This document shows positions 4,230 to 59,371 of a DNA stretch of 64,000 nucleotides, in pieces. The notes beneath the pieces are model-generated. The model saw only the letters and a program-made list of their open reading frames with translations. It was not told the origin of the DNA and made no database searches. The stretch's first letter is position 1. Every line of letters begins with the position of its first letter. A program made the translations under genes and the position numbers. This DNA comes from Octopus sinensis. Its lineage: Eukaryota. The stretch spans positions 6,324,001 to 6,388,000 of the forward strand of contig NC_043021.1 of NCBI RefSeq assembly GCF_006345805.1, written 5' to 3'.

Positions 4230-4310
4230 AGCTTACAGCTGTTTCCACTATAAGGTGTGGTGGCCTCATAGTTGAGTACCTGAGTAACACCTTATAGTTT
4301 CATCAGAGCA
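4230..4310 (-). ncRNA. Type-I hammerhead-ribozyme-like motif in a Penelope-like repeat; degenerate copy at ~22058-22140 (+)
   Basis: Minus strand reads gct-CTGATGA-a-actataaggtgt...acaccttatagt-g-GAAAC-agct-GTA-agc, with a 12-bp stem II and a palindromic stem III. Confidence 0.6.
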
Positions 4311-4618
4311 TCAAACATGAAGTGCAATTTATTTGGGAAAACAAAAACATTTAAGTATACATACAAGAAGGCAATTACCAGTTCCTAAGATTATTATCCA
4401 TTATTCCTTTGTCATCTCTTTTCTTGCATATATATATATATATATATATATATTTCAAGGGTTGAAAAGAAAGAACAACAAAGAAAAAAATTAGATGAAA
4501 ACACACCAAACAGAAAATGAAACGGAAACATAAATGGAAAATTTGCAGCTGATTTCCTTGTTATTCAATGTTCAAGACATCTTAGTGGTTTTGTGCTTTT
4601 AACATTGAGACTACATAT

Positions 4619-4655
<37 letters not shown>

Positions 4656-4854
4656 CATATATATGACAGGCTTCTTTCAGTTTCCGTCTACCAAATCTAC
4701 TCACAAGGCATTGGTTGGCCCGGGGCTATAGCAGAAGACACACAGTGGGACTGAACCCAGAACCATGTGGTTGGTAAGCAAGCTACTTACCACACAGCCA
4801 CATTGCTTATATTTACCAAATTTTAATGAGGGGAATTTTTCTCTTATTTTGTAG

Positions 4855-4962
4855 GAACTACCGAAACCTATTGTTGATGATGTCACCCCGGTACAGTCAA
4901 ACATGATGCAGACAGATGAAATGAAGATAGCTTGGCGTTACCAACATCTTAATAAATACCAG
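4855..4962 (+). CDS. ELP4: ELP4 exon (ELPKPIVDDVTPVQSNMMQTDEMKIAWRYQHLNKYQ)
   Basis: ttttgtag acceptor, gtgggt donor, 108 nt; contains the diagnostic MKIAWRY motif. Confidence 0.95.
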
Positions 4963-5019
4963 GTGGGTCTGCGCAGCCCTGAGTGTATACAGGGCAATAT
5001 ATAATATAGTACTGCATGT

Positions 5020-5580
5020 AGTGGCACATGGCTTAGTGGTTAGAGCACTGGGCTCACGATCATAAGATAGGGAGTTCAATGCCCAGGCTAGTTGTGTATT
5101 GTGTTCTTGAGCAAGACACTTTATTTTCACGTTGCTCCAGTTCACTCAGCTGTGAAAATGAGTTGCAACATCACTGGTGCCAAGCTGTATCAGCCCCTTT
5201 GCCTTTCCTTTGGATAACATCGGTGGCGTGGAGAGGGGAGGCTTCTATGCATGGGTGACTGCTGGTCTTCCATAAGGGGAGGGGCTTTCTCCATCCAGGT
5301 TGCGGATCCGTGGAATAAGCTGCCCGACGAGATAGTGAAGATTCCGAGGACTGCTCGGTTCAAAGTCTCTCTTGACCAGAAATGGCCTGAACTCTTTGCA
5401 TGAACACCCTCCCTGTACATAACTCCATGTCCCCCTACATGGCCTTGCTTTTCGCTTTTTGAGCCAAAAAAATTAACTTAACTTAACTTAACATAAGCAA
5501 CCTTTCCTGGATTTGTGCCTCAGAGGGTAACTTTCTAGGTGCAATCCCAGAGTCATTCATGACCAAAGGGGGGTCTTTAC
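5020..5580 (+). mobile_element. tRNA-derived SINE family D, interrupted by a nested LINE fragment; another copy at ~50329-50635
   Basis: A box tggcttagtggttagagc, B-box-like gagttcaatgccc, and core gtgttcttgagcaagacactttat. Confidence 0.7.
5277..5491 (+). mobile_element. 5'-truncated CR1/L2-like LINE 3' end nested in the SINE
   Basis: Encodes AFSIQVADPWNKLPDEIVKIPRTARFKVSLDQKWPELFA* (WN.LP...FK..LD motif); (ttaac)n tail; cataag duplicated at 5271-5276 and 5492-5497. Confidence 0.75.
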
Positions 5581-6052
5581 TCTATTGTGTGTGTGGTGAG
5601 GATTATGACTGTAAGGGCAAGGAAGTATGGTAGTGTATATAAATTGAGTGAATCTGATGACATCTTCAAAAATTATATATAAAAAATGAAGCAGCACTGT
5701 ATTTTTTCCCAACCAACGTGAGTGATAATACTCAAAATGTTAATTAACCTACTACATAAATGTTTAAAATGTAATTAATTAGTTATTGTCATATGTCAAC
5801 TCAGACAAGTGTGTGGGAAACTTTGAGCTGATGGATGCATTTGATGTGAAATAATTTGAAGGTTAATTTTCATGACAGGCTTGGAATATCTGTCCTTTGT
5901 TTGTATGGAGATAAGAAAAGGTTTTGTTCAAAACGAGAGAGTTGTAAACAGTCGATCAAAAGAAACAAAGGATGTTAGAAGGATTATTTTGTCCTTGTTA
6001 TTCACACAGATACTTGGTTGTTCAGGTGTCTATGTAGCAGGACTCACCACAT

Positions 6053-6312
6053 CAGTGGTTCTCAACCATTTTTTGCCTATGGTTCCCTTTGATTTCTATT
6101 TTACTCTACTGGACCTCCAGAGCAATTCGATGTATATTAAAAAATATCCTACTGTATTTTTATAATTAAATATTATTAGGAATGGCCATAAAAAAAAAAA
6201 TTTGATATTTTGTGTATTGTAGAAGTTTAAGCAATTTATTGCAGATAAATTTTAACTAAAAAATAGTATAGGGACCTCTAAGGGCTAAATGGATCCTGAT
6301 TAAGAACCACTA
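6053..6312. mobile_element. hAT-like MITE relic
   Basis: Imperfect TIRs cagtggttctcaacc...gattaagaaccacta. Confidence 0.5.
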
Positions 6313-15099: not shown

Positions 15100-15572
15100 G
15101 TAAGTTAAGGACATTTTGTAACTAGTTTCTCCTCTCACTCATCCATTACACTGCCTAACAAAATTTTATTTATTTTTTTTTTGTCTTTGGTCAGCAAATG
15201 TTATTCCTATTTGTTTCCATCTAGAAATCAAAGGAAATGACTACTTTCCCCTTCACACTTTGCTTTTCTGACCTGGACATCAATGTTTTGAAACTCACCT
15301 ATTTTCCATTACATTTCACACAAATTCAGCACTCTGTATAAATGTATCAACATATCTAATACCATCAGTATTATAATAATGAATGCATTTAACCTTAGAC
15401 AAGGCACACCACTCTACTCTACATCAATATATCTAACACCATTATCATGATGACAACTGAAGTGTTAAACCTTAGGCAAGATACACCATTCTGTTTAGAT
15501 ACATCTGCATGTTTCACCTGATGTCATTATAATTCTAAAATGTTAATCAAACAAAAACTTCATTTTCCACAG

Positions 15573-15681
15573 GATGCTAATTTTATCCACAAAATTGAAC
15601 GACTCTGTGATACTGTTGTGCATTTGGAGAGTTTTGCTGGTTCCAGCCGCAGCGAGAACCCTTTGTATAAAGAATATCATG
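15573..15681 (+). CDS. ELP4: ELP4 exon (DANFIHKIERLCDTVVHLESFAGSSRSENPLYKEYH-G)
   Basis: ccacag acceptor, gtttgt donor, 109 nt; LESFAGS...NPLYKEYHG motif. Confidence 0.95.
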
Positions 15682-16662
15682 GTTTGTATCCAAAGAATAT
15701 CATCTTCACCTCTCATCCAAACACACACACACACACACATACACATGCACACACTTACATCAAGAAAAATTTCATGCAGTCATTTGACCAAGCTGCCCAA
15801 ATAACCCTCCAGTTAAATAACACATTCACTATTGTGTTGTTTATGGTGTATGTGGTTAAGAGCATGGGCTGTTAACCCCAAGATTCCGAGTTCGATTCCA
15901 GGCAGTGACCTGAACAACAACAACTACAGCAACTGCCGCCGCCACCACCACCACCTTAGGGATGAGAGTTCCTGTCAAGCCAGAATAAGTACTAGGCTTA
16001 CAAAGAATAAGTCCTGGTGTCGATTTGCTCGACTAAAGGTGGTGCTCCAGCATGGCCACAGTCAAATGACTGAAACAAGTAAAAAAGTAAAAAAAAAAGT
16101 AAGACATTTTGTGTGATGCTCTTCTGATTCTGGCACCCATTATCCTTCTTGGAGTCAGTGGTAAGTAGCTTATTTACCAATCACATGGTTCTGGGTTCAG
16201 TCCCACTGCATGGCACCTTGGGCAAGTGTCTTCTACTATAGCCTTGGGCCAACCAAAGCCTTGTGAGTGGATTTGGTAGACGGAAACTGAAAGAAGCCCA
16301 TCGTATATATGTATATATATATGTGTGTGTTTGTGTGTCTGTGTTTGTCCCCCTAGCATTGCTTGACAACCGATGCTGGTGAGTTTACGTCCCCGTAACT
16401 TAGCGGTTCGGCAAAAGAGACCAATAGAATAAGTACTAGGTGTCTAAAGAATAAGTCTTGGCAAATTAAAGGTGGTGCTCCAGCATGGCCACAGTCAAAT
16501 GACTGAAACAAGTAAAATAAGTAAAACAAAAAAAAAAGTAAGACATTTTGTGTGATGCTCTTCTGATGCTGTCATCCATTATCCTTCTTGAAGTCAATAA
16601 ATGAAATACCACAATCGTCTATATTGCTATCTCCTAATGCTTTTCTCTATGTCTTCCTGCAG

Positions 16663-18757: not shown

Positions 18758-18789
<32 letters not shown>

Positions 18790-18790
<1 letters not shown>

Positions 18791-19125
18791 CGGAGATGTA
18801 CTTGCATAGCAAGTGACCTGATCTGAGATCGTGTGCTGGAACGAAAACAATTGCAGCGTGAAACGTGTTTATAAGCCATTTAAGAAACACACAAAAACTG
18901 TTAGATTCACTTCAACATTTAAAATTAATTTGTCAAAACATTTTCATCGCTTTGAGACCGCTATCTCTTCACTGACAAAAGATGCAGCACAGAATTTTAT
19001 CAGTGAACAGGTTGTGGTCTCAAAGCGCCGAAAATATTTTGGCAAATTAAATTTAAATGTTGAAAGGAATCTAACGGATTTTGTGTGTTTCTTAAATGGC
19101 TTATAAACACCTTCCATGCTGCAAT
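18790..19125. mobile_element. Fold-back pair of a ~205-bp Penelope-pLTR-like element with hammerhead-like cores; single copy at ~23710-23915
   Basis: Arms at ~18850-18980 and 18995-19125 are reverse complements. The right arm reads tttatca-GTGAACA-ggttgtggtctcaaagcgcc-GAAA-atat-TT-tggcaaa. Confidence 0.65.
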
Positions 19126-19173
19126 TATATATATATATATAAATGTAATATGTGACAATTATTTGGTAGCCAT

Positions 19174-19234
19174 GATAAAACTCCGAGTTTCAGATGTCGT
19201 GGTGGAAATCTACGCTGCCATCTCTTCAGTTATC
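19174..19234 (-). ncRNA. Type-I hammerhead ribozyme motif (left arm of an inverted pair)
   Basis: Minus strand reads gataa-CTGAAGA-gatg...catct-GAAACTC-g-GAGTT-ttatc; stem I is gataa/ttatc. Confidence 0.7.
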
Positions 19235-19326
19235 TGGCCATCGGAAAAAATGCTATGAAAATGACCGTTAAACAAAGAGCTATTTGAATGACCGCTAAGT
19301 GAATGCGCGTGTGTGTGTGGGGAAGG

Positions 19327-19364
<38 letters not shown>

Positions 19365-19631
19365 GAATGGTGTGGGTGAGAATGTGTATGTTTCAAGTGA
19401 GGGTAGATGAGTGTATACTTATAGGTGCATGTACGTGTGTATGCCGGTGCGCATGTATAGGTATGGACATGCACGCTTATGCAAATACTATGTCCATTTT
19501 TACCCCCTTACTTTTACTCCCTCCCCTCACTTAGCGGTCATTCAAATAGCTCTTTTGTCTTAATAACAGTCAATCATACAGTAATTTCCCTTTGTATAAC
19601 GGTCATTTTCATAGAATTTTTCTGATGGCTG

Positions 19632-19692
19632 GATAACTGAAGAAATGGCGGCGTGGATTTCCACCTCGGCATCCGAAACTCGGAGTTTTATC
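19632..19692 (+). ncRNA. Type-I hammerhead ribozyme motif (right arm of the inverted pair 19140-19300 / 19530-19720)
   Basis: gataa-CTGAAGA(19637-19643)-aatg...catcc-GAAAC(19675-19679)tc-g-gaGTT-ttatc. Confidence 0.7.
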
Positions 19693-19810
19693 ATGGCTAC
19701 CGAATAATTGTCACATATTACAGTGACAGATAAATTCCTCTATTTACATAATATTGAGGTCTCTTTCATTCTTTTGTTGTCTTACCATTTCTGTTAATAT
19801 ATATATATAT

Positions 19811-19956
19811 TCCCGTGTCAGGCCGAAGAACGAAATGTTCCCAAGATAAGAGAGTCTTTCTAATCTAATGTTGTGGTTGAGCTGTTTATTATTTATTATT
19901 ATTACTATTATTAGTAGTATTAGTATTGTCCCTTTGATCCTCGGTCGAAAATTTGC

Positions 19957-20017
<61 letters not shown>

Positions 20018-20330
20018 TTTCAGCTTCGCCTTGTATTGCATATTATTTCTCCATACAGGGGTTTTTTTCAATGGCGGCCCATTTTCGCGGGGTTCCACTA
20101 TTTCCCTTCTCTCTCTCCCTCTTTTACGTTGTCTGCCATCCCCCCTCTTCCTTTGCTAAGAGCATTTAAGCCAGCCCGTCATATTCCCGTGTCAGGCCGA
20201 AGAACGAAATGTTCCCAAGATAAGAGAGTCTTTCTAATCTAATGTTGTGGTTGAGCTGTTTATTATTTATTATTATTACTATTATTAGTAGTATTAGTAT
20301 TGTCCCTTTGATCCTCGGTCGAAAATTTGC

Positions 20331-20382
<52 letters not shown>

Positions 20383-20692
20383 TTTCAGCTTCGCCTTGTA
20401 TTGCATATTATTTCTCCATACAGGGGTTTTTTTCAATGGCGGCCCATTTTCGCGGGGTTCCACTATTTCCCTTCTCTCTCTCCCTCTTTTACGTTGTCTG
20501 CCATCCCCCCTCTTCCTTTGCTAAGAGCATTTAAGCCAGCCCGTCATATTCCCGTGTCAGGCCGAAGAACGAATGTTCCCAGATAAGAGAGTCTTTCTAA
20601 TCTAATGTTGTGGTTGAGCTGTTTATTATTTATTATTATTACTATTATTAGTAGTATAGTATTGTCCCTTTGATCCTCGGTCGAAAATTTGC

Positions 20693-20750
<58 letters not shown>

Positions 20751-20921: not shown

Positions 20922-21624
20922 GGTGCACCCGCCCTTGCCCACCCCACCACCAATACCGGATATCTCTATATTTTTGCTCCATCTATACGGATGTCGCTTC
21001 TCCCACCACCATTATAGGTGTCTACTCTTTGAACCCCCTCTTCAATACGCTATTTGACCATGCATTACCCCTCTCTGATATCCTACGTTCTACTTGCCTA
21101 GAACCTGTCATCATTTCTCTGAACCACCCTCCCCACTGGTGCTCCCCTATATTTCTCCCCCCCCCCACATAAAAAAGCACCATCCGAACGTGGCCGATGC
21201 CAGACCCCTCTGGCACCTGTGCAGGTGGCACGTAAAAAACACCCACTACACTCGCGGAGTGGTTGGCGTTAGGAAGGGCATCCAGCTGTAGAAACACTGC
21301 CAGACTAGACTGGAGCCTGGGGCAGTCCCGAGCTCCCCAGACCCCGGTCGAAACCGTCCAACCCGTGCTAGCGCGGAAAGACGTTAATTAAATGATGATG
21401 ATGATGATGATATATGAATAAATATATATATATATATGAATAAATAAATATATATATATGAATAAATAAATAAATGGAGTTGAATGAAGATGTTAATAAA
21501 ATTCCTTTACTTTCGACATATGTTTCGAAGACAACATAGTTTTATTCCAAAGGAATAAATGCTGTAAGATGCAGTCTTCTCAGTCATCGTAATTATTATA
21601 TTGTCTTGTTGGTGAGAGAGGCTC

Positions 21625-21717
21625 CCTTTCTTTCCTGATGAGAAGATTGCATCTTACACCGTTTATTCCTTTGGAATAAAACCATGTTGTCTTCGAAACA
21701 TATGTCGAAAGTAAAGG
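21625..21717 (+). ncRNA. Type-I hammerhead ribozyme with a canonical core, in a Penelope-like fold-back element (~21470-21760)
   Basis: cctttctttc-CTGATGA(21635-21641)-gaaga...tcttc-GAAAC(21695-21699)-atat-GTC(21704-21706)-gaaag-t-aaagg. All three stems pair and the cleavage triplet is GUC. Confidence 0.8.
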
Positions 21718-21908
21718 AATTTTAACATCTTTGTTCAACTCCATTTATTTATTTATTCATATATAACACACAAATTTCTGCACACGAACCCGGAGTTTTT
21801 ATCTTTGGACAGGTTGCTTCAACTGTGTTTCTGACTTGAATTTGCTACCCTGGTATCGGTTCATCGAATTTTCCATGTTGATGGAAAACATAGGATAATT
21901 TGTTCACC

Positions 21909-21955: not shown

Positions 21956-22199
21956 CAATGAGCACAAATCAGCAGTGGCAATATAATGGTAATGCTTTTT
22001 CCTACATGGATCCATAAATGTAATTCTTTCCCCAAATAAATTGTACTTCATTTTCAAGGCTTTGATGAAGCTGTTAGAAGTTACTCAGGCACTGAAATAT
22101 GATTCCACTGCATCTTGTAGCAGAAACAGCTGTAAGCTTATGAAGTTCATAGGATTACCGCTTATTCCATTGTCATCTCATTTTCCTGTATGTATGTAG

Positions 22200-22234: not shown

Positions 22235-24749
22235 CACATATATATATATAAATACACACACACATACATATACATATATATACACACACACATATATAAA
22301 AGGACTATGTTTTTTGATTCTTAAATAAATTTCAGTATTGTTTAATGATTGATTTCTTGTTTTCCTTTTAAAAAATTTTGTTGATAATTTATTCTTTTAC
22401 TGACTTCATTGGATTGTGGCCATGCTGGGGCACTGATTTCAAAGATGTTATATCATTATTATCATCATCATCACCTTCATTTTGATGTCTGATTTCCATA
22501 CTGGTATGAATTGGATACTTTGATTGATGCAACAGGCCAGAGGGCCACCATATCTTTTGCTGCAGGATCTCACTTTCACCATAGTTTCTATGCCTGGATG
22601 ATCTTCTTAAAACTAACGACTTTACAGAATGTATTAGGTGTATTTTTCAGCAGTAGAACTAGTCTGATCACCTTGTACCTTGTAGGACAGAAGAGCCCTT
22701 GACTAGGAGCAGGAATTACTTTACTATTAGGAACAAGATTCATGGCTACCTCCTATTTTACATGGGTGGTCAGGGAAAGATGGACCTGGTGCCCAAAAGA
22801 GAGGCAAACATGTTGGTGATGAGGGGCCAGAATGAACCCTCATGGTAACATGTCCAAGAAAGTGAATAAAAAATAACAGGGATATAGAAGAATATATATG
22901 CATATACATATGCATATATACGACAGGCTTCTTTCAGTTTCCGTCTACCAAATCCACTCACAAGGCTTTGGTCGGCCCGAGGCTATAGTAGAAGACACTT
23001 GCCCAAGGTGCCACGCAGTGGGACTGAACCTGGAACCATGTGGTTGGTAAGCAAGTTACTTACCACACAGCCGCTCTTGTGCCTAGTGTGTCTGAATAAA
23101 AAACAGAACATTAGATAATGTAGTCCTAGATACACTATGTCCAAATAAAAGACAGTGTACATTAAATAATCCTTTCTACTGGAGGCACAAGACCTCAAAT
23201 TTGTGGGGATGGGATTAGTTGATTACATTGATCCCCCCAGTGTTTCACTGGTACTTAATTTATTGACCCCTGAAAAGATGAAAGGCAAAGTTGACCTTGA
23301 CAAAATTTGAACTCAGAACATAGCTGCAGACGAAATACTGCAAGCATTTCACCCAACGTGCTAACGATTCTGCCAGCTCACTGCCTTATTGTGCACATTA
23401 AATAATGTAGCTCTAGATACACTTGTCTGAACAAAAGACAGAACGCATTAGATAATGTAGTCCCAGAACATTAGACAAAGTAGTCCTAGACACACTGTGT
23501 TTGAATAAAAAGTAGGATGGTCACAACTGGAATACCTTGAATCATAAGTTTGCTGGGCCAGGGCTAAAAATGCAAGAAAAACAACTGCAGCAGAAACCTG
23601 TATGTGATTGATGAAACCAGTAGAAATAGCAGCTAAATTTCCTTACCATTATACCATATCATCTTAAACAAGAAGACAGTTTAGATAATATAGTATTAAT
23701 TACCATATTAATGCAGCACAGAATTTTGTCAGTAAATAGGTCGCGGTCTCAAAGTGAAGAAAATATTTTGGCATATTAAATTTAAATGTTGAAGTGAATC
23801 TAATAGCTTTTGTGTGTTTCTTAAATGGCTTATAAATACCTTCCACACTGCAATTGTTTGCGTTCCAGCAGACGATCTCAGATCAGGTCACTTGCTATGC
23901 AAGTACATCTCTGTAGTAGTATTAATTATGTTGATATTAAATAAGGTAGCGAGCTGGCAGAAATGTTAGCACACCGGGCAAAATGCTTTGTGGTATTTCG
24001 TCTGCTGCTATGTTCTGTGTTCAAATTCCGCCGAGGTCGACTTTGCCTTTCATCCTTTTGGAGTCGATTAAATAAGTACCAGTTACGCACTGGGGTCGAT
24101 ATAATCGACTTAATCCGTTTGTCTGTCCTTGTTTGTCCTCTCTGTGTTTAACCCCTTGTGGGTAGTAAAGAAATAGGTATTTCGTCTGCTGTTACGTTCT
24201 GAGTTCAAATTCCGCCAAGGTCGACTTTGCCTTTCATCTTTTCGGAGTCGATTAAATAAGTACCAGTTACGGACTGGGGTCGATATAATCGACTTAATCC
24301 GTTTGTCTGTCCTTGTTTGTCCTCTCTGTGTTTAACCCCTTGTGGGTAGTAAAGAAATATGTAGTAATTATGTTTCATGTAAAAAGCATTGGTGTGGGTG
24401 TTGGTCCCACATAAAAAGCACCCAGTGCACTCTGTAAATGGTTGGCATTAGGAAGGGCATCCAGCTGTAGAAACCATGCCAAAACAGAATATGGAATATG
24501 TTGTGGCCTCTGGCCTTGTCAATTCCTGTCAAGCTGACCAACCCATGCCAGCATGGAAAACGGATGGTAAATGTTGTTGATGATGATGATGATGCATGAT
24601 AAAAGACAAAATGGAACACTTTTCATGAGAAGTCTACTCCTACAGGCCCAGCCTGGGGCTAAATCACAACAGCAACAACACTTTTGTATCCAATGCGGGA
24701 ATCTCTCCATGATACCGAAAATAGCGATCAAATTCCGTTCAAATTACAT

Positions 24750-41907: not shown

Positions 41908-43151
41908 CTGGAAGAACAACAACAGCAAAAATATATACACATCTTCGTATAATTACTCTGATGCAGTTATAAAGGTGTTACTCAGGGACTCCATTTTGAG
42001 TCCCCTGCATCTAATACCAGAAACAGATAATCATTTATTCCTTTGCTATCTCATTCTCTTATTAAAATTATTTAACCTTTTAGCATTTAAACTGGCCATA
42101 ACCCGTGACCTTCTACATGGGATGTAGCCAGCCCACTTATGCATACCTTCCCTTCTTGGGACACAAAACTCTACTTGTGAAGACCTGTTGAGGCAAGTGA
42201 GAATCAGAATCGAAATCGATCAATGGAAATTGCAGCTGAGTTACCAGTGCCGGTGGCACGTAAGAAAACCATCCGAATGTGGCCGTTGCCAGCGCCGCCC
42301 CAACTGGCCTTGTGCTGGTGGCATGTAAAAAGCACCATCCGTTCGTGGCCGTTGCCAGCCTGGCCTGGCCCCCGTGTCGGTGGCACATAAAAAGCACCAT
42401 CCGATCGTAGCCGTTTGCCAGACTCGTCTGGCACCTGTGCCGGTGGCACGTAAAAAGCACCCACTACACTCATGGAGTGGTTGGCGTTATGAAGGGCATC
42501 CAGCCGTAGAAACATTGCCAGATCAAACTGGGCCATGTGCAGCCTTCTGGCTTCCCAGACCCCAGTTGAACCGTCCAACCCATGCCAGCATGGAAAGTGG
42601 ACGCTAAACGATGATGATGATGATGATGATATCCAGCCAAAAGAATCAACCTATTTTATCTTGAAACTGGCCTGGTCTGGCCTCTCACACTCACCCTACA
42701 AAATTGCTCTAAAAATAAACAATCACGTCATTGAAATCTCAAAGGTACAAGGTCAATGTAAACAAAGTTCTTAGGGAGATTCAGCGTGACACAGTGTGAC
42801 AAGGCGTGACACAGAGTGTGACAAGGCTGGCCCTTTGAAATACAAGTACTACTCATTTTTGCCAGCTGAGTGGACTGGAGCAACGTGAAATAAAATGTCT
42901 TGCTCAAGGACACGACGCATCGCTGGGAATTGAATTCATGACCTTATGACCATGAGCCGAATGCCCTACCCACTAAGCCACACACCTTCACACACACACA
43001 TACATACAAACACAAATACATAATGAATGTATAAAAATTTTATGTACACAAACACGTCCTGACATTGTCACAAAACTTCAATGATGAAACTGAGCCACTC
43101 ATCGCTGCCGAGCCATGCAAAACGTAGGAGAAGAGTGAGAGACGTACTTAC

Positions 43152-43265
43152 CCTCAGTACAAGTTGATGTACCAAATAACCTGGTCGTTGAGTGACTTTT
43201 TCCACAGTGACCTCAATATCACCGTAGCAACCATATTTATCAGGTAGGTAATTCTCACATTTACT
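43152..43265 (-). CDS. PTP exon (SKCENYLPDKYGCYGDIEVTVEKVTQRPGYLVHQLVLR)
   Basis: ttgcag acceptor, gtaagt donor, 114 nt, phase 0/0; KC..Y.P motif. Confidence 0.92.
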
Positions 43266-43364
43266 CTGCAAAAGAGGAGAAAATAAACAGATGTTAGCAA
43301 CAACATCACAATACATTATCAACAAACAGTACTTCTCTAGGTTACATATGTAACATATATATAT

Positions 43365-43417
<53 letters not shown>

Positions 43418-44029
43418 TATATATTCTTTTCTTCTCTTTTATTCATTTCAGTCATTTGACTGTGGCCATGCTGGGGCACCACCTTTAGTTGAACAAATCG
43501 CCCACATAACTTATTCTTTGTAAGCCTAGTACTTACTCTATCAGTCTCTTTTGCCGAACCACTAAGTTACGGGGACGCAGACACACCAACATCAGTTGTC
43601 AAGTGATGGCAGGGGGAAAACACAGACACACAAGCTTATATATATATATATATATGGCGTTAGGAAGGGCAGCCAGCTGTAGAAACTCTGCCAGATCAAG
43701 ACTGGAGCCTGGTGCAGCCATCTGGTTTGCCAGCCTTCAGTCAAAATCCTCCAACCCATGCTAGCATGGAAAGCGGACGTTAAACAATGATGATGATATA
43801 TATATAATGTTAAGCTTATACATATATATATATATACATACGACGTGCTTTTTTCAGTTTTCTGTCCACCAAATCCACTCACAAAGCTTTGGTTGGGTTG
43901 AGGTTATAGCAGAAGACACTTGCCCAAGGTGCCACACAGTAGGACTGAACCCAGAACCATGTGGTTGGTAAGCAAGCTACTTACCACACAGCCACTCCTC
44001 AGCCTTTGATCCCAGATCAAAATTCCCCA

Positions 44030-44170
44030 AAACAGATAAATAGCGCCAATAACAAAAATCCAAGCTTCAGAATTTTTCCCCTCTACCAATTCAGGGATGA
44101 AACAACCTGCAGCCAACGAATTAGTAAAGAGACTCTCTTTATTACAAAATACAGATCCCTTTTGAACACA
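44030..44170 (+). mobile_element. Penelope-like element relic (GIY-YIG endonuclease C-terminus)
   Basis: Encodes NSANNKNPSFRIFPLYQFRDETTCSQRISKETLFITKYRSLLN, resembling the R..KE..FI....LN end of Penelope endonucleases. Confidence 0.5.
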
Positions 44171-44739
44171 TCTACAACAAATGACATAGAATAATAACAC
44201 GCAAATATTAAAAAATGATACATTCAAAAGATACCCTAGAATTCATTAAAAACAGTCCCAATCAATGCTATAATCCACAACGAGTCACTTTTAGGTCACT
44301 TGACCATTTAACATCCTACTACTATCATACCACCCTGCATTCCCCTCTTTGTCTTCTTCCTCTCCGTCACCTCCTTCCTTACTTTACTACTACTGCTGCT
44401 TAGAATAACACCTACATAAATATTATAAACAATACTTCCCAACTACATGGTTTCGGGTTCTGTCCCACTGCGTGGCACTTTGGGTAGGTGTCTTCCACTA
44501 TAGCCCCGAGTCAACCGAAGCTTTGTGATTGAATTCGGTAGGTGGAAGTTACTGCCGTGTGTGTATGTGTGCGTGTAGGTGCTCAGTGCCTCTCCGAAAG
44601 AGAGAGAGGGAATACATTCAAAAGAGATATCTCAAGAATTCAATCACTACCACCATCCACAACAAGTCACTTTCAGGGCACTCGACCATTTAAAATCCAA
44701 CTACTATCATAGCACTCCTGCATTATTCTTGCAGAGATC

Positions 44740-46379: not shown

Positions 46380-47025
46380 ATTAAAGATGAAAAAATGAGT
46401 AATGTTATACATTATTTACATTTGATGGATATTTGTCCTCATCTGGTTTGTTGTTAACACAACGTCTTGGCTGATATACTCTCCAGCCATCATCAGGTGT
46501 CTTGGGAAAATTGCAAACCTGGGTTCTCATTCCTAAATTATTTTTCAAAGTTGCTGTTATTATTATTATTATTATTATTCAGGTCACTGCCTGGAATCAA
46601 ACTCGGAATCTTGGAGGTTAGTAGCCCGCGCTCTTAACTACTACGCCATATGCCTGTTTTGACCCAAGGCCAGCAATTTTGAAGAAAGGTTAGGTTGATT
46701 ACATTGACCCCACTGCTCAAGTGATCCAGGCATATGGCGTAGTGGTTAAGAGTGCAAGCCACTAACTCTAAGATTCCGAGTTCGATCCCAGGCATTGACC
46801 CGAATAATGATAATAATAATCATAATAATAATAATAATAATAATAACATCGAAAAATACCTTAGGAATGAGAACCCAGGTTTGAAATTTCCCTAAGACAC
46901 CGGATGATGGCTGGAGGGTATATCAGCCGAAATGTGTTAACAACAAACAAGATGAGGACAAATATTCGTCAGATGTAAATAATATAAATAATGTACATAA
47001 TTCCTCATCTCTTAAATATAGAACT
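46380..47025. mobile_element. Head-to-head inverted pair of a tRNA-headed SINE carrying a hammerhead-like 3' module
   Basis: Copies at ~46380-46656 (-) and ~46727-47025 (+). A box tggcgtagtggttaagag, B box gagttcgatccc, then gacac-C(T/G)GATGA-t-ggctg...cagcc-(GAAA). Confidence 0.7.
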
Positions 47026-47296
47026 GTATTATATATGTCATATTTCAGAAGTTTTTGCTCTTTCATCAGCACCCTTAATCATCTATGAACACATTGTTAA
47101 ATTGCCCCTAAATACAGTGGTATAATGTTATTGGATATACCAATTTTATATATATCAAACACATTCTTGGAAGCTGGTACACCAACAAAGGCACCCAAGG
47201 GCTAGGCAGGGTTGCTAAACCCTGTAACAGATTAAATTTATTACACAAAAGAATCTAACATTTGTTTGGATTTGGTTTGCAAGATTCTTTATGTGA

Positions 47297-47587
47297 GTTC
47301 GTGTGTTGAAGCATATTCTGTTGTGTCTGGGGAGAGTCATTTTCTTTTTGTGCCTTACGATTTAACACACTCACCGGTAAAATATCCACTTATTTCTTAT
47401 TTTTATTTTCATTTATTTTTATTCATTTTATTTATTTCTTATTTTCATTGCAAGACACAACAAAAATTTTAGGAAAATAAAAATAAGAAATAAGTGGAAA
47501 TTTTACTGGTGAGTGTGTTAAATTATAAGGCACAAAAAGAAAATGACCTTCCCCAGACACATCAGAATATGCTTCAACACATGAACT
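47297..47587. repeat. Fold-back element with ~110-bp arms; the same family is folded back again at ~52005-52170
   Basis: agttcgtgtgttgaagcatattctg...ccacttatttctt is mirrored by aagaaataagtgg...cagaatatgcttcaacacatgaact. Confidence 0.8.
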
Positions 47588-50328: not shown

Positions 50329-51553
50329 AGGCTCACAATTGTGAGGTGGTAAGTTCAATTCCCTGACCAGGCTGCGTGTTGTGTTCTTGAGCAAGACACT
50401 TTATTTCACGTTGCTCCAGTTCACTCAGCTGTAGAAATGAGTTGTGATATCACTGGTGCCAAGCTGTATCAGCCCCTTTGCCTTTCCCTTGGATAACACT
50501 GGCAGCGTGGAGAGGGGAGGCTGGAATGCATGGGCGACGGCTGGTCTTCCACAAACAACCTTGCCTAGACTTGTGCCTCAGAGGGTGACTTTCTAGGTGC
50601 AATCCCATTGTCATTTATGACCAAAAAGGGCCTTTAGGAGTAGTAGTAATCCTTGTGGGTGAAATACTGCTAAACATTTTGCCCAGTGTGCTAACGATTC
50701 TGTCAGCTCGCTGCCTTAACAACAACAGCAACAACAACAACAACAACAATAATCCTTTCTATTATGGGCAATTCCCAGTGACATGTTGTGTCCTTGAGCA
50801 AGACACTTTATTTCACGTTGCACAAGTCCACTCAGCAGACGAAAATGAGTAGCACCTATATTTCAAAGGGCCAGACTTGTCACACTGAAACTCATTAAGA
50901 ACTACATTAAGGGTACACATGTCTGTGGAGTGCTCAACCACTTGCACGTTAATTTCATAAGCAAGCTGTTCTGTTGATCGTATCCTCATCGTTATAACTG
51001 ACGGAGTGCTCCTTGAGAAGACTCATCAAGCCAAATGAAATCATAGTTACAGCTGATGCTAGTGTCACATAACTTGCACATGAAAAACACCCATTATACT
51101 CTTGGAGTGTTGGCATTAGGAAAGGCATCCAGCCGTGGAAACCATGACAAATCAATCTGGAACTTGGTGAAGCTTTCTGACTTACCAATTCCAGTCAGAC
51201 TGCTTAAACTATGCCAGTATAGAAAGCAGAAGCATGATTATGATGATGATATATATATATATCACCCACTACACTCATGGAGTGGTTGGCGTTAGGAAGG
51301 GCATCAAGCTGTAGAAACTCTGCCAGATCAGATTGGAGCCTGGTGCAGCCATCTGGTTTGCCAGTCCTCAGTCAAATCGTCCAATCCATGCTAGCATGGA
51401 AAGCAGACATTAAACTATGATGATGATGATATATATAATATATATATATATATATATCGGGAAGGTTTACGAAAATAAACAAAAGACGAAGGCAGGTGGA
51501 GTACAAACAAACAAATGTATTAGTATGGCGCACAGGAATAGAAATAGAGCAAG

Positions 51554-51591
51554 TCTTTTACGTTTCGAGCCTATGCTCTTCGACAGAAAGA
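51554..51591 (-). ncRNA. Minimal hammerhead-like motif; family also at ~52469-52501(-), 58567-58604(-) and 58864-58902(+)
   Basis: tcttt-CTGTCGA-a-gagc-atag-gctc-GAAA-CG-TA-aaaga. Each copy carries different core substitutions. Confidence 0.55.
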
Positions 51592-53492
51592 TACATAGAA
51601 AAGAAACAAGGAGAGAAAAAAATGCGTGTAGGAGCTAATGGTCTATCATGCCGTTCTCATATATATACTCTTTTTACTCTTTTACTCTTTTACTTGTTTC
51701 AGTCATTTGACTGCGGCCATGCTGGAGCACCACCTTTAATCGAGCAACTCGACCCCAGGACTTATTCTTTTGTAAGCCCAGTATTATTCTATCGGTCTCT
51801 TTTGCCGAACCGCTAAGTGACGGGGACGTAAACACACCACCATTGGTTGTCAAGCAATGCTAGGGGGACAAACACAGACACACAAACACACACGCATACA
51901 TATATATATATATACATATATACGACAGGCTTCTTTCAGTTTCTGTCTACCAAATCCACTCACAAGGCTTGGTTTGCAACATTCTTTATATGAGTTCGTG
52001 TTGAAGCATATTCTGTTGTGTCTGGGGAGAATCATTTTCTTTTAGTGCCTTATTATTTAACACACTCACTGGTAAAATAAAAATAAGAAATAAGTGGAAA
52101 TTTTACCGGTGAGTGTGTTAAATAATAAGGCACTAAAAGAAAATGACTCTCCCCAAACACAACAAGAATATATATATATATATATATAAAAGCACCCACT
52201 ACACTCACGGAATGGTTGGCGTTAGGAAGTGGGCATCCAGCTGTGAAAACATTGCCAGATAAGACTGGAGCCTGGTGCAGCCTTCTGGCTTCCAGATCCC
52301 GGTCGAACCGTCCAACCCATGCTAGCATGGAGAACGGACGTTTAAACGATGATTGATGATGATATATAAGTTAATCCAACACATGAAAGCACAAAAAAAA
52401 AACAAACGCGAGGACGTGGAACAAAATATAGTATTATGGACGCTCAGGAAAGAAGGAAAGAGGGAGGGTTTAACGTTTTGAGCAGAGCTCTTCGTCGGAA
52501 ACATAGGAGAAGGAAAGATCCAGAGAAGGGAAGACAGAGGAAAAAAAATTGCCAACGGTACACACGCGGTCACATATACATACATACATACATACAGAGA
52601 GAGAGAGAGAGGCAGATGAGAGAAAGAGAGATACCTACAGATAGACAGCAAAAGATTCATAAAAAACACAACTTCCTACAGATATAAAGAGACAAATAAA
52701 TAACAATATGCCCATATATACAATTTTCCAAATTACAATTCTAACAATTGGAGAAAGAAAAGAAGGCCAAAACATGCAGCTAATTATTAGAGAAAATTAA
52801 TGATGAAACGTGTGATGATAGCTTTGTAAAGACTTTTGCAATATGGAACATGCCTTTGATGAAATCTAATCTAAAAGAAACTGGAATAATTCCGAAGATT
52901 TAATGAAGACGCAAAATTGCAACGAGCTAATGAGATTTGTTTTTAATATTTTCACACATTTCATTTTATTCATTAGAAATAATTTAATGAAAAGGCTTCA
53001 GATATTGTGAAATAAATGAATAAATAAATAAATAAATAAAAAAATACACATACACATACATGTACTCACAACACACACACACACTTATGAATCAAATTAA
53101 AAAACAATTTTTACAAAGTCTTTTTATCCGCTAGAAATAGCAGCCAAATCTCTTTGAAATCATACCTTAGTATCTGAATTAAAGGAAGGCCATAGGACAA
53201 TGTAATCTGAGACACACTGATGGAATGGTCAAGGCTGGATCATTTTTTTGATCATAGGTCTTATTCAATTAGAACTGATTTGAGGCTAAGGAACAACAAC
53301 AACAACAGCAACAACAGCAACACACATATGCAAATGAATCAGATATTTTACTACAAATATGTTTTGGTTGGTTAGATTAAATCTATGAGGTAGTGACATT
53401 CTTGCCTCTGCTCCAGAATTCTATTCTGTTTAGTTAATTAGACTAAAGCCAGTTTAAATCAAATGTAACAGACTGGATAGGCACAAGAGAGA

Positions 53493-54278
53493 GGGGCGAG
53501 CTGGCAGAAACGTTAGCACGCCGGGCGAAATGCGTAGCCGTATTTCGTCTGCCGTTACGTTCTGAGTTCAAATTCCGCCGAGGTCGGCTTTGCTTTTCAT
53601 CCTTTCGGGGTTGATAAATAAAGTACCAGTTACGCACTGGGGTTGATGTAATCGACTTAATCCATTTCTCTGTCCTTGTTTGTCCCCTCCATATTTAGCC
53701 CCTTGCGGGTAATAAAGAAATAGGTATTTCGTCTGTCTTTATGTTCTGAGTTCAAATTCCACCGAGGTCGACTTTGCCTTTCATCCTTTCGGGGTCGATA
53801 ACTTAAGTACCAGTTACGCACTGGGGGTCGATGTAATCGACTTAATCCCTTTCTCTGTCCATGTTTGTCCCCTCTGTGTTTAGCCCCTTGTGGATAGTAA
53901 AGAAATAGGTATTTCGTCTGTCTTTATGTTCTGAGTTCAAATTCCGCCGAGGTCGACTTTGCCTTTCATCTTTTCGGGGTCAATAAATTAAGTACCAGTT
54001 CCCCACTTGGGATCGATGTAATCGACTTAATCCCTCTCTCTTTCCTTGTTTGTCCCCTCTATGTTTAGCCCCTTGTGGGTAGTAAAGAAATAGGTATTTC
54101 GTCTGTCTTTACGTTCTGAGTTCAAATTCCACCGAGGTCGACTTTGCCTTTCATCCTTTCGGGGTCAGTAAATTAAGTACCAGTTACGCACTGGGGGATC
54201 GATGCTTCGACTTAATCCCTTTCTCTGTCTTTTTTTGTCCCCTCTATGTTTAGCCTCTTGTGGGCAATAAAGAAATAA
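53493..54278 (+). repeat. Family B SINE followed by three 185-bp reiterations of its 3' part
   Basis: The junction aaagaaata|ggtatttcgtctg occurs at 53723, 53908 and 54093. Confidence 0.9.
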
Positions 54279-54659: not shown

Positions 54660-55090
54660 TTATAAGTCACAATATATCTTGCAATACAAGATAAATATAT
54701 TTTTCCTATTTCTATAAGGCTGGTGCAGGTTCTACAGCCAAGACAACCACACTTTTTGATTATTGTTGATTTTAGCAGGTAATTCAGCATTGGTAAGTAA
54801 TTTTTTTTTTCCTGATTTTATTGTTTTTTGATTGTTATATGTGCTTCAAGTGCTCTTTTCCTTCTTCCGACTTGTCTCAATAATGGAATGCTCCGATGGA
54901 TAATGGTGCAGATTTCAGTATTTCTTGGGTTGTGTAGTAGTGTAAGGTAAAGCATTTGGTTTATTTGAACTGTTTTTCTGTTCTTCATAATTCTTGAATG
55001 TCTATTGTTTTGGCAACATTATATTCCATTAACAATTAATTTCATTGAGTTCTGTCTTCCAAGCAGCATTTGTTTTAATTCTTGCAGGCT
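54660..55090 (-). mobile_element. Decayed Penelope-like ORF relic (linker between RT thumb and endonuclease)
   Basis: Frameshifted fragments LQELKQMLL, LPYTTT/HNPRN, IIHRSIPLL and IKKCGCLGCRTC resemble the Cys-containing linker of Penelope ORFs. Confidence 0.45.
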
Positions 55091-56445
55091 TTTATTCCAC
55101 AAATCAAAATTCAAACGAACCAAGCATACTCTTTCTGCCAGATTAACCCTCTGCCATTCAGATTACTCTGTCAAATGTAAAGCTTATTGATTCACATTGT
55201 TTTTAATTAATCGTGCATTATCACATAATCTCAAAATTTCAACGACGCGATTGTTTAGTTTAGAATGTCATTGCAGGATGGGTGTGAGAAGCTGAATCTG
55301 GTTAATTTGAACATAGAAAATGTAGAATATTTGTTTTTGTAGAATTAAAAAAAGAACATTACAACCATATATACGACGGGCTTCTTTCAGTTTCCGTCCA
55401 CCAAATCCACTCACAAGGCTTTGATCGGCCCGAGGCTATAGCAAAAGACACTTGCCCAAGTTGAGTACCATGATAATATCCTACAGCTTCATCAAAGCCT
55501 TTAATATGAATTGCTTTTTATTTAGGTAAGTTACATTTTCAGAATATACAACATACAGGCATTGGTAAACCTGTTCATTCACAATTATGATAAAAAACTC
55601 AGTTTAATGCAGTGAATTTTGCAAATGGGTTTATTTGTACTTTTATAACATGACCACTATTATATCGGCAAAGGAAATGTATGATAATTCACATCAGAGA
55701 ACTTCATACATATATTTGTCTATCTGTGTCTCTATACAGTTATTGAGAAATGTTTTATAGAATGAGGTTTTTTTTTATATATAAATCCAGGAGTTAAAAA
55801 CATTTGTTTTGAAAAAACTATATTTTGAAAATTTGGTTTGATATTTCTTACTTGCATCAACATTTTACTCCTTATTTCCCATTATTTTAAGTTATATTTC
55901 AGTATACAGTCATGTTATCTACTCTGTTTTCCAGTTATATATCTGTTCTGAGATATATAGGGTGTGAAAATCTTTTTATTTAATTATTATCAAACTCTAA
56001 ATACTTCACAGTATTTCTGTGTAACTGTTATAAGTCCAATCTTTTCATCTTTATCCTTATATATTAATATTTGTCTTTCATTTTTATTCATCTATTTATC
56101 TTTCCCTTTCAACTTTATCGTTCTGTTTCTCTTTATCTCCCATCATTTTTCCCTGTCAGCATTCATTATCCAAGTATTTATATGCCTGAATCTGTTTTTG
56201 AACCATACATTGAAAATACATGCACTTCTGCATCTTCCTACGTACCTTAAACAACCAACACGATAACCTATCCATCCACACATCTACCAACACACACACA
56301 GTTTCACATCACATCTATACACACACACACACACTCTATACTGTACCACATATCTAGCTATTTGTTAACTAACCTATCTATTTGTCCATTAATCCCTCTA
56401 TATCTGTCTGTCTGTCTATCTATAACAATATATTTCATATTTCAT

Positions 56446-56552
56446 TCCATAACGGCTACCTCTGCTGAGTGCAGGGTTACAAAATTGGACTGTTACGTAA
56501 CACTCCATTGAACCCCTAGTGCGAAACCGATTGGTAAGATCGGCCGTAATGG
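56446..56552 (+). ncRNA. Hammerhead-like motif with A6->C and a closed stem III
   Basis: ccataacggc-tacct-CTGCTGA(56462-56468)-gtgcagggtt...aacccctagtgc-GAAACC-gatt-GGTA-agatcg-gccgtaatgg. Confidence 0.5.
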
Positions 56553-57165
56553 ATATATAATACTGTACACATCATAGATATCTACATATGTAGATATCTA
56601 CACACACACACATGCACACACACACACATGATAAATTGTGGTTCTTAAAATTAAGTGATGGGAACGTAAACACACCAGCATTGGTTGTCAAGCAATGCTA
56701 GGGGGACAAACACAGACACACAAACACACACACATATATATATATATACATATATACGACAGGCTTCTTTCAGTTTCCATCTACCAAATCCACTCACAGG
56801 CATTGGTCGGCCCGGGGCTATAGCAGAAGACACTTGCCCAAGATTCCACGCAGTGGGACTGAACCCGGAACCATGTGGTTGGTTAGCAAGCTACTTACCA
56901 CACAGCCACTCCTTAAAATTAAGCACACTATATAATATACTGAGGGTGTATAGTAGAGTTTAATGATCATATTAAGAGGTGATGGGCATGACACCAAGTT
57001 TTGTGTAAAGTTGATGCCCTGCACTCATTAAAAAGACACATTATGGGTTTAAGTATTTCTTTTATCATAATATATATCTTTTTCCTTTCTTGAAAGGCTT
57101 TGCATGTTGGAATTCTGCAAAAGCCACTTTTAGTATGATTGTCATTAAACAACATTACATATCTA

Positions 57166-57416
57166 TCGTTGCTATTATGTTAAACTGTCGTATGTCCAAG
57201 TTCGGCCAAATGTGTTTTTTCTTAATATTTATTTTTGCTTGCAATAGCCCATTCTTTTGGTCAAGCTATTGTCTCCCCTGCTGCTTCAGATGCCAAGATA
57301 TCAAAAGTTTTCAAAGTGTAGTACAATAGTTTTGCTACGGAATGGGGAAACTATATTTTTGTTTTCTGCAAAAGCAATATTTTGGACTTACAACACTTTT
57401 GCATAATAGCAACAAT
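57166..57416. mobile_element. MITE with ~35-bp imperfect TIRs
   Basis: atcgttgctattatgttaaactgtcgtatgtccaa is mirrored by ttggacttacaacacttttgcataatagcaacaat. Confidence 0.6.
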
Positions 57417-57731
57417 ATATATATATATATATATCACGTGATTATGTGACCGACCAGACCATCAGATGTTGCTACACATCGCTGGTCACAATGCGTTCGC
57501 ATTGTTTTAGCCTTCGAACGACGCCACCCCGCTGGCTAAGCGAGCAGGCCAACAGAAGAAAGAGTGATGAAAGAGTACAGCAGGGATCACCACCACCCCC
57601 TGCCGGAGCCTCGTGGAACTTTTAGGTGTTTTTGCTCAATAAACACACACAACGCCCAGTCTGGGAATCGAAACCGCGAACCTACGACCGCGAGTCCGCT
57701 GCCCTAACCACTGGGCCATTGCGCCTCCATA

Positions 57732-57823
<92 letters not shown>

Positions 57824-58318
57824 AAGTTAGGGGTTGTGATCACAGGAGAGGCCAGGGGTTGAACTCAGATTGCAAGTAGAGTGAGTAGAATAGAAAGAAG
57901 TCACTTACTTGGTATCATAGTTTTATAGCGATTTTTGGTTCCTGACCCTGCTACATAGACTTTTTCAGGGTGGTTGGTAGGGATATCCTGAAAGGAAGCA
58001 GAGAGAGATGAGGCAGTTACACAAGAAAACATACAAACACACACACACATACCATTAAAACAAGAGGAACGGAGTGAACAAGTCCTTTTATTACATCAAT
58101 TTAACAACAATGGTAATAGCTCTCTGAACTTTGCTGAGTTTGGCTCTTATTCTAGTAACTACAATCTCAAAGCAATTCCTCCACTGCTAATTTGGTCATC
58201 AAGGAACAGCAACTATCTACAACTTCTATGATGATTCTCTAACCTGTTTTGTATTCCATGTAAATACACACTTTAAGCCTAATTCTGTTTATTTGCTTTC
58301 CCTCTGTGTGTATGCATG

Positions 58319-58360
<42 letters not shown>

Positions 58361-59371
58361 TATAATATAAATATATATAGATATATATAGTAGATACATA
58401 TATGTACATACCTATATATATATGTATATATACATACATATATGGGTACAGGGCATAAAAAAAAAACGTTGAACACAATGAGTAAAACGAAGGAAACAAA
58501 AGACGAAGACAGGTGAGGGAACAGAAAGTAGGTGTATTAGTTTAACGCTAGGGAAGAATGGAAAAGTCTTTGATGTTTCGAGCCTATGCTCTTTAACAGA
58601 AAAGGATTGAGAGGAAATCAATTGGAGAGAAAAAAATGTGTAGGGATTAATGGTTCAAGATGATGAAAAGCCGGAAACATGTGTGAGCGTGTTATGCATA
58701 CTCACAAGCACATGCATACTTTATTTGTAGGTCAACAAGACTACAAACGGTTCCATATGAAAAGAGCTACACACTTGTTCAAGCATGGCCCATGCTCATC
58801 TCCATTCAGTGTATATATATATTTTTTTTACTCTCCCTCTCTCTCCACTCTTTTTCTTCTCATCTCTTTCTGACAAAGAGCATAGGCTTGAAATGTCAAA
58901 GACTTTTCCATTCTCCCTGAGCATCATACTAATACACCTGCTTGTTGTTCCATCACCTGTCTTTGTCTTCTGTACATATATATACGTAAAACACCATCCG
59001 TTTCGTGGCCGTTTGCCAGCTCTGTCTGGACCCCATGTTGGTGGCACATAAAAGCACCATCCATTCGTGTCCATTGCCAGCCTCGCCTGGCCCCCGTGCC
59101 GGTGACATGTAAAAGCACCATCCGTTCGTGGCCGTTTGCCAGCTCTGTCTGGCACCTGTACGGGTGGCACGTAAAAAGCACCCACTACACTCATGGAGTG
59201 GTTGGCGTTAGGAAGGGCATCCAGCTGTAGAAACACTGCCAGATCTGACTGGGCTTGATGAAGCCTTCCAGCTTCACAGACCCCAGTTGAACCGTCCAAC
59301 CCATGCTAGCATGGAAAACGGACGCTAAATGATGATGATGATGATGATGATATGTATGTATGTATGTATAT

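Follow-up and report, generated by a model that had tools for sequence, protein, structure and literature searches.

Short repeats carrying minimal type-I hammerhead motifs in Octopus sinensis are probably the truncated pseudo-LTRs of several Penelope-like families

Seven families of short repeats (A to G), each with a minimal type-I hammerhead ribozyme motif, are found in a 64,000 nt stretch of the Octopus sinensis genome (contig NC_043021.1, positions 6,324,001 to 6,388,000), hereafter called the window. The repeats are very likely to be the 5'-truncated pseudo-LTRs of Penelope-like families, at least seven in number and unrelated to one another, with hammerheads predicted to self-cleave as dimers via their palindromic stem III. 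The pseudo-LTR identity is shown for six of the families and likely for family A. The copies and related features, in window coordinates, are as follows.

4098..4363, minus strand: family A copy with 3' tail; intact core CUGAUGA at 4306-4300, triplet GUA
18774..18980, minus strand: family B, left arm of a head-to-head fold-back, long tail; core GUGAAGA at 18972 (G3/G8 unpaired)
18980..19126, plus strand: family B, right arm, with the G3-C8 swap; core GUGAACA (19003-19009), triplet UUU, stem III palindromic over 6 nt
19131..19302, minus strand: family C inverted partner copy; intact core CUGAAGA at 19229
19343..19783, plus strand: family C copy preceded by ~300 nt of 3' UTR; core CUGAAGA at 19637
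21445..21582, minus strand: family D inverted partner arm; core truncated
21581..21765, plus strand: family D copy, fully canonical; CUGAUGA core at 21635, triplet GUC, stem III palindromic over 8 nt
21987..22179, plus strand: family A copy whose core at 22062 has C3U, which does not pair with G8
23711..23918, plus strand: family B copy, long tail; decayed core at 23732
41956..42064, plus strand: decayed family A copy with a stem III deletion; absent from the earlier list of sites
44010..44380, plus strand: Penelope-like relic, end of the GIY-YIG frame and start of the 3' UTR; relatives have an RT and a separate U3-A8 hammerhead, missing here
46408..46657, minus strand: family E copy with tRNA-like head, (AAT)n and hammerhead; core at 46496, GAAA decayed
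46727..47027, plus strand: family E copy with tRNA-like head, (AAT)n and hammerhead; core at 46901 with U4G, 3-nt deletion after GAAA
47321..47559, unstranded: fold-back from the 3' part of an eighth family; fuller copies elsewhere have a U3-A8 hammerhead fold, core lost here
51469..51660, minus strand: family F copy, young lineage; core CUGUCGA at 51586 (A6U, lineage-typical), stem III palindrome of 4 nt
52011..52168, unstranded: second fold-back of the eighth family, without hammerhead
52362..52575, minus strand: family F copy, sister lineage; core CCGACGA at 52498 (U4C, in several copies), G12 decayed
54695..55147, minus strand: older, broken Penelope-like relic, RT end to Cys linker; tblastn E 2.9e-5 against a natural RT/GIY-YIG frame
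55459..55528, minus strand: 5' fragment of family A; absent from the earlier list of sites
56436..56573, plus strand: family G copy; core at 56462 (A6C here, CUGAnGA in most relatives), stem III near-palindrome of 10 nt
58494..58654, minus strand: diverged family F copy; decayed core at 58599
58865..58973, plus strand: diverged family F copy; core at 58870 with G8A

The sequence-only reading of the window had described about seven unrelated elements sharing one hammerhead layout, and this was borne out: all 14 of the sites it named are repeat copies with that layout at the family level, and the best blastn match between families has an E-value of 0.067 over 11 nt. Profile searches gave 18 matches in the window, among them additional fragments at 41956, 55528 and 21582, and by extrapolation there are ~130,000 copies or fragments of the families genome-wide. 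Each family has a predicted minimal type-I fold, with G10.1-C11.1, stems I and II flanking the core, and the short, mostly palindromic stem III that had been described, interrupted in family C by a single central mismatch. Stem II is long in families A, C, D and G, and part of family E has a 3-nt deletion following GAAA. Two copies show further detail: a long stem II and an 8 nt stem III palindrome in the family A copy at 4098..4363 (minus strand), and an internal loop in stem I of the family G copy at 56436..56573 (plus strand). The top Rfam matches were of microsatellite or fold-back sequence to miRNA models, under the gathering score, and the pseudo-LTR hammerhead repeats account for long hairpins with weak scores for microRNA families.

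The suspected linkage to RT and GIY-YIG reading frames was found in six of the seven families, where a GIY-YIG frame lies upstream on the same strand (B, C, D, E, F and G); the RT end was seen upstream for F and G, and the other four are linked through GIY-YIG. Nine family B copies are linked to one endonuclease family, the frame of which matches Pfam GIY-YIG at E 1.4e-4, narrowly below the cut-off; most of the frame fragments went undetected by Pfam. Two independent family C copies are collinear with their frame over 530 nt, and a third is collinear by blastn. Fifteen copies of family D, three of family F and three matches of family E (two of them directly adjacent) are linked to a frame, and RT or EN matches occur in six family G copies. 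The accepted family B link was obtained by walking the 3' UTR of B; the first link, to the RT/GIY-YIG family L319, was rejected, as only one of 30 endonuclease copies has B downstream and L319 has its own 3' end. A CX3CxxC linker is present in family B, CCHH-type endonucleases in F and E, CxxC and CxH in C and G (with a CxCX5C-type linker in relatives), and CxxC, CxH and an Asn-rich stretch in D. None of 39 family A copies has an upstream frame, the longest shared upstream stretch being ~230 nt. Since six families run upstream into GIY-YIG frames, and some into RT, they are pseudo-LTRs of Penelope-like elements and not retrozymes. The Penelope origin and the diversity proposed earlier are thereby upheld, but the copies are mostly 5'-truncated ends of coding elements and not free-standing or tandem retrozymes, and the description of the population as unannotated is doubtful, given that octopus genomes have annotated Penelope-like elements (PMC13282606). 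The relics near 44030 and 54660 that had been cited in support are genuine Penelope-like pieces, but belong to families other than A-G.

The 3' ends of the copies are fixed and the 5' ends variable, and inverted partner copies are present. Families A, B, C and E have two alternative 3' ends, which relative to the core lie at ~+126 and +185 to +198 (B), ~+117 and +131 (A), and ~+93 and +124 or beyond (E); such a two-ended 'tail' has been called unique to Penelope-like elements (PMC11167929). These patterns suggest a mechanism in which the RT/GIY-YIG protein of the element would start reverse transcription at either of two fixed positions, ~90-200 nt downstream of the core, and would mostly end it early, leaving a 5' truncation. 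An inverted second copy would often be added, and insertion would be into or beside an AT-rich microsatellite. The inserted copies may arise from uncut RNA and then decay neutrally, with selection on the ribozyme confined to a few active master copies.

The core had been given as CUGAnGA with GAAA. This canonical form is the majority state in families A, C, D, E and G, but the named window copies are mostly decayed and only four of the 14 carry it literally (4306, 19229, 19637 and 21635), while family B has GUGAACA, and CUGUnGA (A6U) is found in the largest and youngest lineages of family F. The family B core is a G3-C8 swap in 89 of 108 copies, with C3 in none of the 108; a sub-lineage of many copies has G3 and an unpaired G8. 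The family B tree is poorly resolved (4 of 104 branches starred); it places the G8 copies in a cluster but does not order the events. Of the 64 family F copies sampled, 29 had been selected with an A6U query; most have U6, and a single copy combines A6 with a core that is otherwise intact. A6 is maintained in the other six families. U3-A8 hammerheads were found in families other than A-G.

With positions 3, 6, 7 and 8 left free, the majority 3-8 pair is Watson-Crick in 16 of 17 motif groups (C-G in 10, U-A in 4, G-C in 2), and A6 is the majority base in 16 of 17, the groups representing about 14 distinct families by our own reading. Position 7 varies freely and its neighbours do not. Core columns are more conserved than base-matched non-CpG columns in families A (p 0.001), D (0/5000) and G (0/5000) and when pooled (0/5000), but not significantly so in B (p 0.052), F (0.069), C (0.30) or E (0.48), for copies that share ancestry and were chosen as top matches. 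The anticipated conservation was thus evident in three families, and the anticipated covariation in the 3-8 pair across families and in one compensatory stem I pair between family F lineages (96% of cells paired, 0/500 shuffles). The latter is the only one of eight F pairs to have changed on both sides, probably in a single event. Paired 3-8 variants (C-G, U-A and the G-C of family B) would be explained by selection acting on the ribozyme in active masters.

A somewhat unlikely alternative is that the repeats originated in the same way but carry hammerheads that are vestigial, or that serve only as RNA structure (a binding or priming signal), with cleavage irrelevant to the spread of the repeats. 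Among 164 copies not picked by query, none starts within 2 nt of the predicted cut, as would be the case if uncut RNA were the source of inserts. The read ends looked for at the predicted sites did not pile up in RNA-seq of a related organism, where family B was covered about equally on both strands, although these were three raw runs of fragmented cDNA libraries, sampled at ~6% of each, and so a weak check. The A6U change in F and G3/G8 in B are expected to lower activity, yet have spread to many copies, and an anole element remains able to insert in vitro with a mutated core (PMC11167929). Against this, the 3-8 pair forms in the active fold and is kept by covariation across families, position 7 is free to vary where its neighbours are not, and G3-C8 was the only core double change to rescue cleavage in mutagenesis (PMC9901934). 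A family fixed for G3-C8 argues for cleavage being under selection in active elements and against its dispensability for insertion in vitro, while family F and the B G3/G8 sub-lineage point the opposite way. Co-folding with the core held open predicts a double hammerhead with inter-strand stems I and III for families A, C and D, which in D is the dimer minimum; predicted co-folds lack stem III for B, E, F and F2, and G and F2 favour other folds.

Family B may be a natural case in which a hammerhead got across a two-step fitness valley, reached an active G3-C8 core and multiplied to thousands of copies; it would be the first family known from a genome to have the core pair reversed. The same genome could be viewed as a natural core mutagenesis (C-G, U-A and G-C, with U4C and A6U tolerated), and family E as a SINE with a tRNA head that arose from a Penelope-like element and is mobilised by it. 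We regard this combined scenario as possible without favoring it.

It is quite unlikely that the families are instead short non-autonomous elements, of the retrozyme or SINE-like type, that are transcribed independently and mobilised in trans. Clusters of 5' ends upstream of the core in B, F, G and A are in keeping with this, but may partly reflect query choice. Family E comes closest, and is the only one of the seven with SINE-like traits: 16 of 38 matches begin within 14 nt of each other, at a tRNA-like head that contains motifs resembling A and B boxes and is the starting point of most of the short copies and of both window copies, and only three of the 38 extend to the coding frame. However, ARAGORN found no tRNA in the window or in 16 family E loci, and the E head also sits within the 3' UTR of the coding element. 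Six of the families run on into coding frames, and the 64-kb window has no head-to-tail arrays of hammerhead units, the defining trait of animal retrozymes (PMC7229834; bioRxiv 10.64898/2026.07.22.740005).

A strict hammerhead descriptor gave three matches in the window and none in each of 100 local dinucleotide shuffles, so that motif density exceeded that of shuffled sequence as predicted, and outside the window it gave eight in 599,900 bases against none in each of 10 shuffles; with a looser descriptor the values were three against a shuffle mean of 0.025 and five against a mean of 0.5. The descriptor was composed after the families were known and already admitted variant cores, so the independent test is that with positions 3, 6, 7 and 8 left free. 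Chance matches of a short motif within AT-rich repeats are extremely improbable and are refuted by these two tests, core conservation, F-lineage covariation and the constant position of the motif, which in all linked families follows the endonuclease frame, also opposing them, even though the literal motif is missing from 10 of the 14 window copies and no hammerhead family is present among the best 150 of 266 Rfam matches.

Pseudo-LTR hammerheads (min-HHR) of metazoan Penelope-like elements were described by Cervera and de la Pena in 2014 (PMC4209133), with mollusc examples from Lottia and Crassostrea in the supplement. The families reported here share with them the type-I fold, short stem I, G10.1-C11.1 and palindromic stem III, as well as an additional base that in several families precedes stem II, U3-A8 variants, and the presence of many families per genome, mostly as solo truncated copies, some head to head. 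The available text of that study mentions no cephalopod and no G3-C8 or A6U family, and its thousands per genome are descriptor matches, a different measure from the ~10^5 profile matches estimated here. In the canonical C-terminal-endonuclease clades Neptune/Nematis, Penelope/Poseidon and Hydra (Craig et al. 2021, PMC8557442), GIY-YIG is likewise C-terminal and upstream of the hammerhead, and the tail, inverted 5'-truncated partners and (TA)n bias are also seen. Family B is Neptune/Nematis-like and C and G are Hydra-like by motif only, so the clade names serve as leads; cephalopods appear in the available text of PMC8557442 only for decayed Naiads. The anole Poseidon element PAc (Frangieh et al. 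2024, PMC11167929) resembles the present families in having two reverse-transcription start sites that give the tail, insertion from uncut RNA, and RNA-seq ends absent at the cut site.

Animal non-LTR retrozymes (PMC7229834; bioRxiv 10.64898/2026.07.22.740005) similarly carry type-I hammerheads in short repeats, but their tandem arrays of 170-400 nt were not seen in the window, and six of our families belong to coding elements. Sm-alpha SINE-like elements (PMC6765202) have a promoter followed by a hammerhead, as family E does, but the family E head also lies inside the 3' UTR of a coding element. Octopus genomes have 31 recently active Penelope-like families (PMC13282606), in an account whose main text, as available, does not use the word 'ribozyme'.

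The known association of hammerheads with Penelope pseudo-LTRs is thus extended to an octopus genome, on a large scale. The general kind is already known (PMC4209133), and the newer details are the G3-C8 core of family B, the A6U lineages of family F and the tRNA-like head of family E. In the sources consulted, natural 3-8 covariation is reported as U3-A8, and G3-C8 only as an engineered rescue (PMC4209133, PMC9901934, PMC11167929). No report of a natural G3-C8 or A6U core was found in the literature, although Lunse et al. and Arkhipova et al. 2017 could already describe them. The C3G/G8C double mutant engineered in PAc was partly active (PMC11167929), whereas in family B the same combination is the natural majority state. 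With natural matched variants in both directions, the role of the hammerhead for Penelope elements becomes testable.

Both strands were read at 14 named sites in the window, and the best genomic relatives were aligned (30 loci per family). As the sequence-only reading had proposed, unrelated elements share one layout: the sites resolve into seven families (A–G) without mutual similarity, each with a core of seven bases between stem I and stem II, and then GAAA, a palindromic stem III, UH and stem I'. The stem III palindrome is 4 nt in E and F, 6 nt in B, 8 nt in A and D, about 10 nt in G, and 9 nt with a central mismatch in C. The proposed layout holds at family level; literal CUGAnGA and GAAA are kept in 4/14 window copies, most being decayed. 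Hammerhead-bearing repeats are real and well above chance, and their density exceeds that of shuffled sequence: a strict descriptor, designed with families A–G already known, matched three times in the window versus none in each of 100 shuffles, and eight times in 599,900 bases outside it (round-number positions on 29 large contigs) versus none in each of 10 shuffles. None of the 150 Rfam matches listed for the window, out of 266, is a hammerhead. The element type is already known, and the host is probably new for such elements.

SINEs and microsatellites are numerous in the window, which also carries exons of two genes:
15522-15875, + strand, exons of a PAXNEB (Elongator subunit 4-like) gene
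39449-43442, - strand, exons of a protein-tyrosine phosphatase gene
Three tandem arrays, with units of 365 nt (19807-20922), 67 nt (27671-28251) and 185 nt (53540-54277), are unrelated to the hammerhead families.

Among family copies, 3' ends are fixed and 5' ends variable. The expected linkage to GIY-YIG frames was found, the longest copies of B, C, D, E, F and G running upstream into frames on the same strand. Such frames were seen in 15/46 copies of D (mostly about 250 nt upstream of the profile start), 9/131 of B (one endonuclease family, with an AC-rich 3' UTR between), 2/45 of C (the two collinear, and a third copy with them), 3/65 of E, 3/66 of F (its own endonuclease) and 6/36 of G (RT or endonuclease matches). 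The majority of copies, or the loci that hold them, do not extend far enough for a frame to be reached. No upstream coding frame was found in 39 copies of A. Scattered matches to other endonucleases (e.g., four in B) are nested insertions. An assignment of B to the RT/GIY-YIG family typified by genomic locus L319 was dropped, B lying downstream in only 1/30 copies of that endonuclease. The endonuclease frame joined to D (L038:1911-3002) has a long Asn-rich stretch in place of the Cys linker of other clades. Another Penelope-like family (L340:2-1690 and L321-L350), with a long open RT and GIY-YIG frame of at least 562 aa and a microsatellite-like 3' UTR of more than 1.3 kb, looks young.

The two ORF relics near 44030 and 54660, which had been connected with these elements, are both genuinely Penelope-like, but neither is joined to A–G. 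Relatives of the former carry RT, Cys linker, GIY-YIG and then their own terminal hammerhead, mostly U3-A8 (A8 in 6/8 regex matches, G8 in 2/8); the latter (54695-55147) matches a natural RT/GIY-YIG frame.

Profiles of A–G gave 20 matches in 400,000 bases and eight in 199,900 bases of the outside samples, a density of about 47 per Mb (Poisson range 31–67), which extrapolates to about 130,000 copies and fragments in the 2.72 Gb genome (84,000–184,000), each fold-back arm being counted singly. The window, with 18 profile matches, has about six times the density of the outside samples. Beyond A–G, at least 10 further hammerhead families occur in the genomic DNA examined. The descriptor found more unrelated folds with a palindromic stem III at L345, L247, L129, L077, L040, L024, L380, L384 and L398, two families of this set having U3-A8. 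Two long hairpins in the window (47321-47559 and 52011-52168), scored weakly by Rfam as plant miRNA families, belong to an eighth family and are fold-backs arranged head to head; the fuller copies of this family (L394, L208, L374) have a hammerhead fold, three arms having U3-A8 and one U3/G8.

Conservation within families is a weak test of selection because inserted copies decay neutrally; core columns are more conserved than base-matched non-CpG ones in A, D and G, whereas the difference does not reach significance in B, F, C and E. Comparison across families is the better test. With positions 3, 6, 7 and 8 left free, 16 of 17 motif groups (about 14 families, with B, E and one other each counted twice) had a Watson-Crick 3-8 majority (C-G in 10, U-A in four, G-C in two; the other is C-A), and A6 was found in 16/17. 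One stem I pair differs on both sides between lineages of F, probably a single event (96% paired, 0/500 shuffles) in 29 diverse copies hand-picked out of 51. In monomer folding, stems I and II dominate in B, D and E; a double hammerhead was recovered for A, C and D with the core held open, and alternative folds compete in F, F2 and G.

Three families depart from the usual core or anatomy. The 108 near-complete copies of B, about 30 of them chosen by a G3-C8 query and the remainder by others, have G3-C8 in 89, G3-G8 in 14 and other combinations in five, and none has C3. Nine of the 14 G3-G8 copies fall in one weakly supported group. A sub-lineage of B with G3 opposite G8 unpaired (L352, L354, L361, L362, L367, L368, L374 and L375, mostly on contig C20) has many copies concentrated on a single contig, which may reflect duplication at the DNA level or spread without cleavage. 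Reads of a related organism gave no alternative letter, among those listed, at the core positions of B. In the data consulted from a comprehensive pairwise mutagenesis, the G:C swap was the sole core double change restoring activity (PMC9901934), and it is described as partly rescuing a Penelope hammerhead (PMC11167929, in part). Natural 3-8 covariation is given as U3-A8 in sections of PMC3088659 and PMC4209133. No natural G3-C8 family appeared in the literature searched, which left out two key papers; this core variant may be new. Supplement file 1 of PMC4209133, outside the search, may bear on the novelty of the variants. F keeps U6 across lineages that have any of the four bases at position 7; U4C, present in a sister lineage, is described in part of PMC3088659 as remaining active in a viroid. 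Family E has, between stop codon and hammerhead, a tRNA-like head with motifs resembling A and B boxes, which ARAGORN does not call as a tRNA; the starts of 16/38 matches lie at this head within 14 nt of one another, and three matches reach the frame. A lone head without the hammerhead part lies at 15842-15923 in the window.

A look for read ends at the predicted cleavage sites had been suggested as a check. Reads of a related organism on B (about 1,250–1,730 per run, both strands) showed no pile-up of ends, the pattern that passive read-through would give in fragmented libraries. No copy among the 164 not selected by query starts at the predicted cut site, and the two results together count against cleavage having a role in making copies. 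Judging from the literature, copying would begin by internal priming by the element's own protein, and cleavage would be dimer-dependent, perhaps protein-assisted. The ribozyme may act in master transcripts, either freeing them when RNA is tandem or reads through, or holding down the amount of RNA; copies in the genome would be dead by-products. The lack of cut-site starts and of piled-up read ends agrees with the Penelope element treated in part of PMC11167929, for which uncut RNA is the main template. Families A, B, C and E each have two alternative 3' ends, which match the tail described for Penelope-like elements in portions of PMC8557442 and PMC11167929; likewise, partner copies in inverted orientation and flanking (TA)n match the inversion and the target bias described there.
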